Below, piece by piece: positions 11,067 through 14,587 of a DNA stretch of 64,000 nucleotides (the stretch's first letter is position 1; each line of letters starts with the position of its first letter). A model generated the notes under the pieces. The model worked only from the letters and a program-made list of their open reading frames with translations. It searched no databases and had not been told where the DNA came from. The stretch is from Candidatus Moraniibacteriota bacterium (GTDB lineage Bacteria; Patescibacteriota; Minisyncoccia; Moranbacterales; JBBINP01), in assembly GCA_037443825.1 (NCBI GenBank), contig JBBINP010000001.1, positions 1,430-65,429 of the forward strand. Direction: 5' to 3'. The translations under genes were made by a program, and so were the position numbers.

Positions 11067-11137
11067 CGGAGCGTGGTGTAATGGCAGCACGAGTGCTTTG
11101 GGAGCATTTAGTCCGAGTTCGACTCTCGGCGCTCCGA
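11067..11137 (+). tRNA. tRNA-Pro (anticodon UGG), CCA not encoded
   Basis: Manually folded. Acceptor CGGAGCG pairs with CGCTCCG (with a G-U); D-stem GTGT/GCAC; anticodon stem AGTGC/GCATT with loop TTTGGGA (UGG, G37); T-arm CCGAG-TTCGACT-CTCGG; discriminator A. The ORF 10943..11167 overlapping it is spurious. Confidence 0.8.
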
Positions 11138-11192
11138 CCCAATTTATGTTTTAGTTGTCAAAATTAAGGAGTGAACAAACAAAAATCCAGAG

Positions 11193-11257
11193 ATGGAAAT
11201 TTTAGCAAAAATCGCCAAAGCTCTCGGCGTTTCGCTTGATGATTTAATAAAGCGATT
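11193..11257 (+). pseudogene. remnant (C-terminal ~20 codons) of an XRE-family HTH gene, N-terminus missing
   Basis: MEILAKIAKALGVSLDDLIKRL matches only the final helices of a Cro/CI HTH. It is 12/17 identical to the C-terminus (ITKIADGLGVTIDDLIK) of the intact HTH gene at 34116-34343. It lies in a different frame from the MTase, which begins at 11258 inside it. Confidence 0.5.
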
Positions 11258-12340
11258 ATGGCAAATAAAAATCTTACAAACGCAAAAAGGGCAAAAAACG
11301 ACGAGTTTTACACTCAATATACCGATATCCAAAAAGAAATTGCGGCGTATTTGGAATATAACCCCGATGTGTTTCGCGGCAAAGCAGTGTATTGCAACTG
11401 CGACGATCCGTTTGAAAGCAATTTTTTCCGCTATTTCGCGCTCAATTTCAACAAGCTCGGATTAAAAAAACTAATTACCACCAGCTACAAACTTTCGCCC
11501 GTGGCTAATATGGAATTGCCATTGTATGGCGACGATAAAACGATCGTAAAAGCAAAAGGCCGCCCCAAGATAACCGCCAACAAATTTATTATAAACGAAG
11601 CGCGCGACATAGACGACAACGGCGAATTTAATCTGAAAGATGTTTCCAAACAATTAAGGGCCAACAAACATAACGAATGGGCGCCATTGGAAGGCGAGGG
11701 CGATTTCCGCAGCAAAGAATGCGTTGAGCTCTTAAAACAAGCGGATATTGTGGCGACCAATCCGCCGTTTAGTTTGTTTCGCGAATATGTTAAACAACTT
11801 ATTGATTACAAAAAGAATTTTATCATCATCGGTAATTTAAACGCGATTACTTACAAAGAAATATTTCCACTAATCAAAGATAATAAATTATGGTTAGGCA
11901 ATGGCTTTAGTGCCGGCAATGCTTATTTTTCTACGCCCGTTAAAAGAGAATATGCGGGCGGAGTCTATGATCCCAAAACTGGATTAGTAAAATTTAGAAA
12001 TTGTTGTTGGTTCACAAATCTTGACCATGGCCGTCGTCATCAACCATTAAAACTTCAAACAATGAAAGAAAATTTAAAATACAGCAAACATAAAGAAATT
12101 AAAGGCAAAAAAGCGTATGAAAAATATGATAATTACAACGCTATAGAAGTGCCTTTCACAGATGCGATTCCAAGCGATTATAAAGGCGTAATGGGTGTCC
12201 CGGTTAGTTTTTTAGATAAGTATAATCCAGACCAGTTTGAAATTATAAAGTTTAGACATGGAAATGATGATAAAGATTTGCGATTAAAGAACGGAACTTG
12301 CCCATATTTCCGCATTTTAGTTAAACACAAGAAAAAATAA
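11258..12340 (+). CDS. N6-adenine DNA methyltransferase, EcoRI-methylase-like family (motif IV NPPF)
   Basis: N-terminus AKNDEFYTQYTDIQKEI...AVYCNCDDPFESNFFRYFALNFNKLGLKKL and motif VATNPPFSLF. From memory this matches the M.EcoRI/PF13651 family; the family call carries a memory caveat. Confidence 0.65.
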   Translation: MANKNLTNAKRAKNDEFYTQYTDIQKEIAAYLEYNPDVFRGKAVYCNCDDPFESNFFRYFALNFNKLGLKKLITTSYKLSPVANMELPLYGDDKTIVKAKGRPKITANKFIINEARDIDDNGEFNLKDVSKQLRANKHNEWAPLEGEGDFRSKECVELLKQADIVATNPPFSLFREYVKQLIDYKKNFIIIGNLNAITYKEIFPLIKDNKLWLGNGFSAGNAYFSTPVKREYAGGVYDPKTGLVKFRNCCWFTNLDHGRRHQPLKLQTMKENLKYSKHKEIKGKKAYEKYDNYNAIEVPFTDAIPSDYKGVMGVPVSFLDKYNPDQFEIIKFRHGNDDKDLRLKNGTCPYFRILVKHKKK

Positions 12341-12341
12341 T

Positions 12342-13193
12342 ATGAAAATTGCTAAATCAAAACGGATTTCAATTTTTGAGGGCAAGAAAATCCGGCGAGT
12401 TTGGGACAAGAAAACCGAAACATGGTTTTTTTCGGTGGTGGATGTCGTGGCTGTTCTAATAAATCAGGCAGATTTTCAGTTAGCGAGAAATTATTGGAAA
12501 GTGCTTAAAAATCGCCTGAAAAAAGAAGGGAGTCAAGTGGTTACAAATTGTAACCGGTTGAAATTGGAAGCCGAAGACGGAAAAATGCGCGAAACTGATA
12601 TGGCTAATCCGGAAACCCTGTTTCGTTTAATCCAATCAATTCCATCCAAAAAAGCTGAACCGATTAAATTGTGGCTGGCTAAAGTCGGTTATGAACGAGT
12701 GCAAGAAATGAGCGATCCGGAAAGGGCGCTCAATCGCGGCCGCGAGTATTGGCAAAAAATGGGACGGGATCAAAAGTGGATCCAGCAAAGAATGATGGGA
12801 CAGGAAATAAGAAATAAATTAACGGACTATTGGAAAGATAACGAAGTGAAAGAAAAAGAAGAATATGCCGTTTTAACCAACATTATTCATCAAGAGTGGA
12901 GCGATTTGACCGTCAAAGAACATAAAGATTTGAAAAAATTAAAGCGAGAAAATTTGCGCGACCATATGACAGACGCGGAGTTGGTTTTTACCGCTTTAGC
13001 GGAACTTTCCACGCGCCAAATCGCGGAAACAATGCGAACAAAGGGACTTAAAGAAAATAAAATCCCCGCGCGAAAAGGCGGACGAGTGGCAAAAAACGCG
13101 CGGTTGGAATTGGAACAAAAAACAGGTAAAAAAGTGGTGAGCGGCAGAAATTTTAAACAACTGCCGGAACAGAAAAAATTAAGTAAAAAATAA
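12342..13193 (+). CDS. BRO-N / DinD-like (DNA-damage-inducible protein D family) protein
   Basis: N-terminus [29 protein letters not shown] fits the Bro-N fold. The later segment [26 protein letters not shown] resembles E. coli DinD (HMGSTELAANLFRATQTEEKL). It starts 1 nt after the MTase stop. Confidence 0.55.
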
Positions 13194-13194
13194 T

Positions 13195-14364
13195 ATGAAA
13201 ACAATTTTAAAAACCACCATAACTGTCAAAGAAATCTGCGATGGATTTGTCTATAACGAACTTGAAGGCAAGGGTCTTTTTGGCTTGTCCGGCAAATTGA
13301 CCATTCAGCCGGAATATCAGCGCAACTATATTTACGCCTCCGACAACGGCAAAAAAGAAATGGCTGTCATTCAATCAGTCCTCAAAGGATACCCGATAGG
13401 CTTGATTTATTTTAATAAAGTAAGTGATAGCAATTTGGAGGTTTTGGACGGACAACAGCGCATCACTAGTTTGGGACGATTTATCACCGATAAATTCGCT
13501 ATCAAAGACGAAAGCGGAAGTCCGCAATATTTTAGCGGCATGGCGAAAGACAAGCAAGCCAAAATTTTGGAAACGAAACTGACTATTTACGAATGCGAAG
13601 GCAAAGAAAGCGAAATAAAAGAGTGGTTCAAAACCATTAACATCGCCGGCGTTCCTTTGAACGATCAGGAATTGCTTAATGCCGTGTATTCCGGCCCGTT
13701 TGTGACGCTCGGCAAGGAGGAATTTAGCAACAGCCAAAACGCCAATATCCAAAAATGGAGCGCGTATATCAAAGGCAGCGCCAACCGGCAGGAATTTTTA
13801 GAGCGCGCGCTGGATTGGGTAAGTAAGGGCAATATCGGCGATTATATGAGCCGCCATCGTTTTGACAAAAACATCAACGAATTAAAAAAATATTTTAACA
13901 GCGTGATTGATTGGGTTTCCGGCGTATTTGACGATGTTGAAAGCGAGATGCGCGGTCTTGAATGGGGACGGCTTTACGAGGAGTATCGCAAAAAAGCGTT
14001 TAATCCCGCGAAAGTGTCAGCGGAAGTACAAAAACTTTACGCCGATCCGTATGTAAAGAATCGCAAAGGCATTTTTGAATATATTCTCGGCGGTTTAGTG
14101 GATACGAAATTGCTTGAAGTTCGGATTTTTGATGAAGCAACCAAAAAAGCGGTTTACGCGGCACAAACCGCTAAAGCGGAGAAAAAAGGCGAATCAAATT
14201 GCCCCCTTTGCGCTATTGGGCATGACGCGAACAAAACGAAAATTTGGAGTTTTGGCGAAATGGACGCCGACCATATTTCGGCTTGGAGCAAGGGTGGCAA
14301 AAGCGATATCAAGAATTGCCAAATGTTGTGCAAGACCCACAATCGCGCAAAAGGCAATCGGTAA
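13195..14364 (+). CDS. DUF262 (ParB-like, GmrSD N-terminal type, DGQQR motif) nuclease fused to C-terminal HNH endonuclease
   Basis: [17 protein letters not shown] is the DUF262 hallmark. The C-terminus [10 protein letters not shown]...[32 protein letters not shown] is an HNH motif. It starts 1 nt after the preceding stop. Confidence 0.75.
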
Positions 14365-14587
14365 AATTTATATAGTGTGCCAATAAAATTTTAATTTTTT
14401 AGCAAAACAAAAAACAGAATTAGGCCTGTTTTTTTGTTGATGTCGATTTTATAAAAATTGAAAGAAAATTGTTTTACTTTACTCGCCGAGTTTCGGCGGG
14501 CGGAAACGCGGAGCAAGGATATTCAAGCATTTTTCGTTCAAAAAAGTTTCGAGCTTCGTTCAGTAATTACGACCAAAGCTTGGCATT

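Follow-up and report, generated by a model that had tools for sequence, protein, structure and literature searches.

A mobile methylase-nuclease cassette with an embedded PDC-S13 gene beside tRNA-Pro: a candidate restriction-modification system and its passenger

Do three tightly packed genes downstream of a tRNA gene make up one three-part defence system, or a two-gene system with a passenger in its middle? The question is raised by a locus in a Candidatus Moraniibacteriota bacterium (Patescibacteriota, Minisyncoccia, Moranbacterales), which we studied within a window of 64,000 nucleotides (nt), the whole stretch of DNA analysed here (GenBank assembly GCA_037443825.1, contig JBBINP010000001.1, positions 1,430 to 65,429 of the forward strand; coordinates below are those of the window). 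Three open reading frames (ORFs) on the same strand follow a tRNA-Pro(UGG) gene, with 1-nt spacers from one ORF to the next, in the order M, a predicted EcoRI-family adenine methyltransferase; B, a protein with a BRO-N domain; and R, a predicted nuclease joining a DUF262 and an HNH domain. We consider it likely that the locus is a mobile restriction-modification (R-M) cassette of the (controller)-methylase-nuclease type, (C)-M-R, and that B is a passenger of the PDC-S13 family rather than a subunit. This reading is carried by the anatomy of the locus, its homology to other cassettes, an insertion signature around B and the recurrence of cargo at the same position; the biochemical roles of M, R and B are predictions from their sequences. 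The features on which the argument turns are these:

11066..11141, plus strand: tRNA-Pro(UGG) (ARAGORN; Rfam RF00005, 59.4 bits)
11205..11257, plus strand: 3′ remnant of an XRE-family controller (C) gene (HTH_26 positions 40-59 of 63)
11258..12340, plus strand: M, predicted EcoRI-family N6-adenine DNA methyltransferase, 360 amino acids (aa) (PF13651, 1.8e-123)
11897..12007, plus strand: hypervariable segment of M, residues ~214-250 (column conservation 0.37-0.56)
12332..12348, plus strand: left copy of the 17-nt direct repeat AAAAAATAATATGAAAA (M stop, 1-nt spacer, B start)
12342..13193, plus strand: B, BRO-N and DinD-family helical C-terminal domain, 283 aa (Bro-N, 9.6e-9; PDC-S13)
13185..13201, plus strand: right copy of the 17-nt direct repeat AAAAAATAATATGAAAA (B stop, 1-nt spacer, R start)
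13195..14364, plus strand: R, predicted DUF262 and zinc-ribbon HNH nuclease, 389 aa (PF03235, PF01844)

A first-pass annotation of this DNA had described a tightly coupled operon of three ORFs with single-nucleotide spacing 3′ of tRNA-Pro, and the coordinates bear this out, although the start of M lies 116 nt past the tRNA 3′ end and not 56 nt as was stated. Its domain assignments for the three proteins (EcoRI_methylase, Bro-N, DUF262 and HNH) held up in searches with profile hidden Markov models, Bro-N included, which scored above its gathering threshold.

The methylase-nuclease pair and the gene at its joint

Both outer proteins match families of R-M enzymes. M aligns to PF13651 over residues 5-339 (412.7 bits against a cut-off of 26.4) and to the PADLOC model MTase_II (2.7e-107), and it contains the catalytic (D/N)PP(Y/F) motif as NPPF at residues 168-171. 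R has an N-terminal GmrSD_N/DUF262 domain (PF03235, 3.4e-21, 76.7 bits) and an HNH domain (PF01844, 1.3e-7) at residues ~336-389. The DGQQR motif of the former (D85, G86, Q87, Q88 and R89, residues 85-89) is invariant in 28 homologues, as are D359, H360, N374, H382, N383 and four cysteines of the latter. R also matches the PADLOC profile REase_II PDLC03418 (3.4e-78) at positions 5-371 of 372; the Type II profiles of PADLOC are derived from REBASE. PADLOC run on the locus labelled M a Type II methylase and R a Type II endonuclease. Searches of the PDB with the sequences and profiles of M, B and R gave no matches, and the AlphaFold2 (AF2) models, built from shallow alignments, reached overall confidence scores (pLDDT) of 49 for R and 57 for B.

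M and R form a unit well beyond this genome. A similarity search with R returned at least 8000 homologues, of which the best 120 were 86-94% identical and came from Pacebacteria, Woesebacteria, Omnitrophota and one 4.5-Mb genome. In a set of 88 R-centred loci, gathered by similarity to R, every contig that extends far enough has an EcoRI-family M immediately upstream of R, and in 67 of 80 related loci the gap between the two is -16 to +9 nt, mainly -4 or +1. The two genes are thus separate, adjacent and co-inherited, as in Type II R-M systems. At the DNA level, copies in other phyla, in integrative and conjugative elements (ICEs) of E. coli and on plasmids share 72-88% identity with the cassette. 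Of 5426 complete E. coli genomes, 8 carry it, one of them within an ICE beside ccdAB and insertion sequence (IS) elements; it is also present on a Moraxella plasmid of 9 kb and on plasmids of Enterococcus, Arthrobacter and Pediococcus. To judge from this spread the cassette is plainly mobile and the locus is horizontally acquired defence DNA, as the first-pass annotation had proposed. Current pipelines would label the pair "RM type II"; it is otherwise uncharacterised. We found in the literature no experimental paper on an EcoRI-family methylase paired with a DUF262-HNH protein, and PF13651 appeared there solely within method lists. In one public assembly of the same strain (SRR11582139; loci L010 and L012) the contigs break inside R, at window positions ~13319 and ~14265, as expected if many community members carry a near-identical R that tangles the assembly graph.

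The middle gene is bounded by a scar. A perfect 17-nt repeat, AAAAAATAATATGAAAA, flanks B in two copies 853 nt apart, and it is identical to the sequence that in uninterrupted cassettes forms the joint of M stop, 1-nt spacer and R start; this identity argues that the insertion of B duplicated the joint. The left copy provides the ATG AAA with which B begins, and the right copy restores the start of R. Such a signature is detectable at other B homologues as well, with only modest enrichment: duplications of the downstream start, as repeats of at least 9 nt, flank the B insertion site in 10 of 77 loci, against 3.7% in controls.

Other genes have entered the same joint. Inserts of 0.86-3.3 kb occupy it in 13 of the 80 related loci, mostly as co-directional, tightly packed genes, and they encode RhuM/PDC-S05, Fic (SoFic), AbiU2-type HEPN, WGR and OLD-family ATPase-TOPRIM proteins, and further a trypsin-like PDC-S45 protein, a NucC-like PD-DExK nuclease, DUF6680 and T5orf172. 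Junction duplications of 10-18 nt surround the cargo in loci L154, L164-166, L159 and L140. The RhuM cargo and B share no similarity detectable by BLASTP. At L154:4684-6001 the M/R insert, 1.3 kb long, has no ORF above ~90 aa and is probably decayed cargo; its perfect 18-nt junction repeat lies within ~45 nt of duplicated M 3′ end. Two contigs each carry two M-R cassettes in tandem (L172:134-5666 and L152:4847-10044), and in L152 the pair of M proteins and the pair of R proteins are both ~45% identical; tandem cassettes could be the raw material for joints that carry cargo and a duplicated M 3′ end.

The complete M-B-R trio was found once more, in Candidatus Jacksonbacteria (B homologue P0129), 49 nt after tRNA-Trp and in another genomic context. 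Over 3153 nt it aligns colinearly to the window, with 78% DNA identity (protein identities of 81% for M, 83-84% for B and 80% for R), and the 38 nt between its B and R are a degraded duplicate of the M 3′ end. On this comparison the trio is a unit that moves, with two neighbourhoods to its name.

B itself is best described by two profiles. Its residues 16-114 match Bro-N (36.2 bits against a cut-off of 25.6), and residues 10-115 are the sole confident part of its AF2 model (pLDDT 71-89). Over nearly its full length, residues 5-279 against profile positions 3-274 of 286, it matches PDC-S13 (PDLC04920, 1.5e-119), a candidate defence family to which it also conforms in being embedded within a defence system; a further match is to phrog_15286 (4.7e-90), and there is none in NCBIfam. 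E. coli DinD matches the PDC-S13 models too, its residues 122-250 matching the sub-model of B at 2.2e-16, while neither BLASTP nor hhalign with shallow alignments detected similarity between B and E. coli DinD. Since the link is seen by the PADLOC profile alone, "DinD-like" is a label that B merits at the profile level, and there for its C-terminal half alone. Payne et al. (2024) arrived at the PDC families through "guilt by embedding", with Hma, BREX, DISARM and Type I R-M loci as the hosts; dinD has been reported fused to hsdS in Btr190I, and dinD, RhuM, Fic and GIY-YIG genes have been described between Type I core genes. We found no paper in the literature that treats PDC-S13 by name.

Relatives of B live mostly elsewhere. 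A similarity search gave at least 8000 homologues, and the 80 genome loci examined (66-81% identical, many phyla) have heterogeneous neighbourhoods, the majority of them without an R-M neighbour. R-M domains are still the commonest matches: N6_Mtase in 5 loci, Eco57I in 4, N6_N4_Mtase in 3 and MmeI in 2 upstream of the B homologue, ResIII in the neighbourhood of 7, downstream in 5 of these, and Methylase_S in 2, downstream. Of these 80 species-level loci, just one has so much as a fragment of this M near its B homologue. The homologue P0124, 82% identical, is flanked by the mod and res genes of a Type III R-M system; in the Type III loci L185-L189 (e.g. L187:193-4089) the B homologue shares 14 nt with mod and stops 2 nt short of res. 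In the M-R gap, B is absent from all 88 loci collected with R. By these comparisons B is cargo at the M/R joint and probably not an R-M subunit, and it is a candidate for an independent, second-line defence gene.

The first-pass annotation had suggested that the three genes could be a novel methylation-linked defence or addiction module. One part of that view was fair: the pairing of a DUF262 nuclease with a methylase is not a textbook arrangement. The trio as such is not a novel integrated module; the conserved unit is the M-R pair, and B, whose homologues are mostly found elsewhere, belongs to a set that was defined by embedding in the first place.

The controller remnant, the tRNA gene and the flanks

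Upstream of M, the window retains the last ~50 nt of a controller gene, encoding ...AKIAKALGVSLDDLIKRL. The N-terminal two thirds are gone and the stop codon is lost, leaving a frame that runs open into the M region. An intact XRE-type C gene of 69 aa, ending at the M start, is present in ~11 relatives (including L093, L095, L113 and L117). Similarity to the DNA of other cassettes sets in at 11205-11240 and ends at 14364-14379.

The remaining features lie outside or at the edge of this interval:

10952-10973: rpoC terminator, upstream flank
10989..11017, plus strand: sigma-70-like promoter ahead of tRNA-Pro (TTGACT-17-TATTAT, 10/12 consensus matches)
14453..14580, plus strand: conserved ~125-nt element with a hairpin (similarity to L045 and L117)
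14642-14815, minus strand: ORF of 57 aa without Pfam match, followed by a terminator-like hairpin (14627-14604)
14918-15784: MGMT-TsaC fusion gene, downstream flank (domain matches)

On the plus strand of 11142-11257 no promoter-like site was found. The sole consensus-like plus-strand promoter ahead of M-B-R is that of the tRNA gene (10989-11017), which makes it a possible source of read-through, and transcription of M-B-R from the tRNA-Pro promoter is plausible.

The tRNA gene may be more than a chance neighbour. Among ~48 distinct cassettes with enough upstream DNA, seven (the window, L181, L117, L115, L106, L097 and L100) have a co-oriented tRNA gene within 1 kb upstream, where ~1 would be expected by a rough estimate from the tRNA density of small genomes. 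The association is a real trend of the cassette family, positional only, and it supports the tRNA linkage noted in the first-pass annotation. That annotation reported no integrase at the locus, and we likewise found none near the cassette; nor does the locus have the distal repeat of a tRNA 3′ end that, with an integrase, characterises tRNA-targeting integrative islands. The sole case of a nearby integrase among the loci examined is that of the Woesebacteria copies (L003:9255-11010), where three opposite-strand tRNA genes (Ile, Met, Met), the first of them within 85 nt, and a tyrosine recombinase gene follow the cassette. At L016:5278-6822, a C-terminal piece of M (residues 292-360, 86% identical) begins no more than 21 nt past a tRNA-Glu gene, with a 115-aa ORF and a B homologue after it, a decayed M-x-B arrangement truncated at the tRNA gene; the truncation of M there resembles that of the C gene in the window.

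A degenerate copy of the tRNA 3′ half at ~14475-14500 had been put forward as the distal boundary of an island. Local alignment of the tRNA 3′ half with 14365-14930 gave a score of 15, against a mean of 15.2 for shuffled sequences, and no direct repeat was found that joins the tRNA end to the distal end of the cassette, so this candidate was rejected. The letters at 14475-14500 are a hairpin, CGCCGA-GTT-TCGGCG, within an element of ~125 nt that is present at two unrelated loci as well: 92% identical at L045:172-294, ~150 nt upstream of a B homologue, and 88% identical and inverted at L117:97-212, where it abuts tRNA-Pro(GGG) beside a C-M-R cassette. In L117, two C-to-T changes preserve G-U pairs; in L045, a frame of 44 codons is preserved. 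Structure prediction revealed no compensatory changes in the element, and it has no match in Rfam or in viral contigs. The element may be a mark of acquired DNA past R.

Both flanks are as they had been annotated, with the rpoC terminator on one side and the MGMT-TsaC fusion on the other. The fusion joins an O6-methylguanine-DNA methyltransferase (MGMT) domain, with the CHR active-site motif kept, to TsaC/Sua5, and is frequent in Parcubacteria-like genomes (803 homologues at E <= 1e-20). The 57-aa ORF on the minus strand (14642-14815) lies between the cassette and this gene. The local gene order is unusual: rpoB-rpoC-tRNA-Pro-[cassette]-MGMT/TsaC-hypothetical gene-nusG-rplK-rplA. Exact look-ups of the MGMT-TsaC gene matched the same strain only, and the nearest other homologues are at most 65% identical and not syntenic. 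As these relatives are too distant, the boundaries of the island are drawn solely from similarity to other cassettes.

These observations can be assembled into a history and a tentative mode of action. The cassette sits just downstream of tRNA-Pro and has lost its controller gene except for the last ~50 nt. It has also taken up B, exactly in the stop-start joint of M and R, which was duplicated in the process. M would mark host DNA with N6-methyladenine (m6A), and R would cut unmarked incoming DNA, probably using a nucleoside triphosphate (NTP) through its DUF262 domain. B would draw on the operon for its expression and spread, as embedded genes do in Type I R-M, BREX and DISARM systems.

Conservation of the pair and rival readings

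The pair is unusual in its pattern of conservation. We compared M and R across 69 cassettes (2346 pairs). R is on average 81.2% identical and M 62.4%, and R is the more conserved of the two in 95.7% of the pairs. The distant E. coli and Moraxella copies show this too (53-57% to the window for M, 69-71% for R), as do the tandem cassettes of L172, where the M proteins are 48% and the R proteins 78% identical. Part of this conservation is inflated, because the loci were gathered by similarity to R.

M contains a hypervariable stretch, 35-45 residues long, with a conserved motif on either side (WLG and CWFTNLDHGRRHQ). Its sequences group into at least 13 discrete types across the 69 cassettes, and the types are kept across distant hosts: that of the window is also found in the copy on the Moraxella osloensis plasmid pSKB0120-6, and that of L106 also in E. 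coli, for instance in strain 2013C-3033 (NZ_CP027323.1). The stretch is a candidate target-recognition region. R follows it hardly at all, with an identity of 83.5% within M segment types and 80.9% between types. The normalised mutual information between R columns and M segment type, computed without control for phylogeny, reached 0.38 at most (mean 0.05), and in the same 69 phylogenetically uncorrected cassettes we found no R position that tracks the segment type. Greater conservation of R and lack of co-variation together suggest that R may not carry a sequence specificity matching that of M. With the invariant DGQQR motif, they speak indirectly against a classical Type II role in which R would recognise the M target unaided and cut at a set distance without NTP.

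We also looked for a trace of the recognition site in palindrome avoidance. TCGA is strongly depleted in the 64,000-nt window (37 observed, 165 expected under a maximal-order Markov model; observed/expected ratio 0.22, z = -10). The guess at a recognition site based on it was rejected: cassette flanks, set against control loci, showed no TCGA depletion linked to the cassette, and no palindrome clearly stood out. GTTAAC and CTGCAG are absent from the window.

The alternative that fares best, and which we regard as possible though doubtful, keeps B as cargo and alters the role of R. Here R would be a nuclease agnostic to sequence, either docking on M at unmethylated sites in a manner like that of Type III or Type I enzymes, with DUF262 as a nucleotide switch, or reading m6A generically, as SspE reads phosphorothioate. 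The conservation figures for the 2346 pairs, the E. coli and Moraxella copies and the L172 tandem all point this way, as do the 13 or more M segment types without an R column that tracks them and the invariance of the DGQQR NTPase motif. SspE offers a precedent, being a DUF262 nuclease that serves as the restriction arm of a host-modification system. On the other side, the M segment could be a surface loop under diversifying selection rather than a recognition region, the R-based collection of loci inflates the conservation of R, PADLOC places R among Type II endonucleases, and the structural model of R is too poor (pLDDT 49) to speak for such a mechanism. A broader proposal, likewise possible though doubtful, is that the pair represents an undescribed R-M class, in which a near-invariant, NTP-dependent nuclease without a specificity of its own would be directed by M, whose swappable segment would set the target, or by the m6A mark; the joint would act as a landing pad that captures second-line defence genes and spreads them between R-M operon types.

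It is unlikely that R instead belongs with GmrSD and BrxU as a modification-dependent nuclease of Type IV, directed against modified phage DNA, with M a separate enzyme that merely shares the operon. The DUF262 domain of R, DGQQR included, does match GmrSD_N, annotators at the JGI name homologues McrA-like, and R shows no co-variation with the M types. Independence of the two genes would, however, leave unexplained the near-obligate stop-start coupling to M, which 67 of 80 loci from different phyla and mobile elements display; R is coupled to M family-wide, where a GmrSD-type enzyme stands alone without a methylase. The C-terminal domain differs too, being PF01844 HNH: no DUF1524 match was obtained for R at E <= 0.01, and only HNH and HNH_5 matched at its C-terminus, so that R shares the DUF262/DGQQR half of GmrSD-type enzymes and not the DUF1524 half. 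Controller genes, finally, characterise R-M pairs in which expression must be ordered.

Very improbable, in our view, is an integrated three-component system in which B would replace the lost C protein as a regulator timing R expression, or serve R as an adaptor: its place between M and R with 1-nt spacers, the loss of the C gene in both known trios, their colinearity through ~20% divergence, the DNA-binding nature of the BRO-N domain and the recurrence of B homologues between methylase and nuclease genes of other R-M types would suit it, but B occupies the gap in 0 of 88 related cassettes, which are mostly bare M-R, most of the 80 B loci have no R-M neighbour, the same joint hosts many unrelated cargo genes, and most cassettes lack a C gene yet have no B.

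The preferred reading, a mobile R-M cassette with B as its passenger, has to accommodate several observations that sit poorly with it. R being more conserved than M, and not co-varying with the M segment, is the reverse of what classical Type II pairs show. Elsewhere, the DUF262 NTPase domain is known as part of enzymes that sense modification. The only DinD likeness of B is a profile match over its C-terminal half, and its role is a predicted one. A search among relatives of the flanking gene turned up no empty site. Two lineages have retained the trio through ~20% divergence, and because of this persistence some functional interplay between B and the R-M pair may exist.

Comparison with known systems

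Against this background, the trio layout is an ordinary mosaic, and the most interesting lead is the pair of M with a DUF262-HNH protein, together with the joint that captures cargo. Type II R-M systems such as PvuII, BamHI and AhdI are organised as C-M-R operons. The cassette resembles them in its separate M and R genes, in the XRE-type C gene that abuts M in some relatives, in its occurrence on plasmids, ICEs and islands, and in the PADLOC Type II matches of both proteins. It differs in that R is predicted to combine a DUF262 NTPase with HNH and not to be a stand-alone, sequence-specific cutter, and in that R, the better conserved of the two proteins, does not follow the variable segment of M.

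With GmrSD, BrxU and SspE, which combine DUF262 and DUF1524, R shares the N-terminal DUF262 domain with DGQQR and a C-terminal His-Me finger nuclease; with SspE it would also share, by analogy, the position of restriction arm in a host-modification system. In contrast to these enzymes it has a canonical zinc-ribbon HNH domain (PF01844) in place of DUF1524, is translationally coupled to an adenine methylase and has no sequence-level match to the solved members. A 2025 review names DUF262 only for GmrSD-type enzymes and SspE. If R is indeed agnostic to sequence, the pair would offer a simple, clonable two-gene model of how a ParB-like NTPase couples methylation status to cleavage, and would stand either as a counterpart of SspABCD-SspE for adenine methylation or as a Type III-like system that relies on a nucleotide switch of the ParB type. 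As copies exist in E. coli, the question of specificity is directly testable. The host cassette is also very widespread, its R homologues (at least 8000) reaching from candidate-phyla bacteria and Omnitrophota to E. coli ICEs and Enterococcus plasmids.

B, for its part, compares with embedded defence genes such as PrrC in EcoPrrI and the HEC and PDC candidates (Payne et al., 2024). It belongs to PDC-S13; PDC-S05/RhuM, SoFic, OLD and PDC-S45 occupy the same joint in other cassettes, and dinD is known fused to, or beside, Type I genes. The host system is different, being a two-gene, Type II-like cassette or, for a close homologue, a Type III system, and so is the mode of entry, at a single stop-start joint with a junction duplication. 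The survey of embedding covered Hma, BREX, DISARM and Type I systems only (Payne et al., 2024). With the present locus and its relatives, the pattern known from Type I R-M, BREX and DISARM systems is seen also in a minimal cassette of two genes and in a Type III system. The clean scar of the locus, a duplicated stop-start joint, hints at a route by which cargo is captured. E. coli DinD and B are similar in length and both fall into PADLOC PDC-S13; the N-terminal half of B is a Pfam BRO-N domain, in which it differs from DinD, and dinD is a chromosomal SOS gene, whereas B is embedded in an R-M operon.

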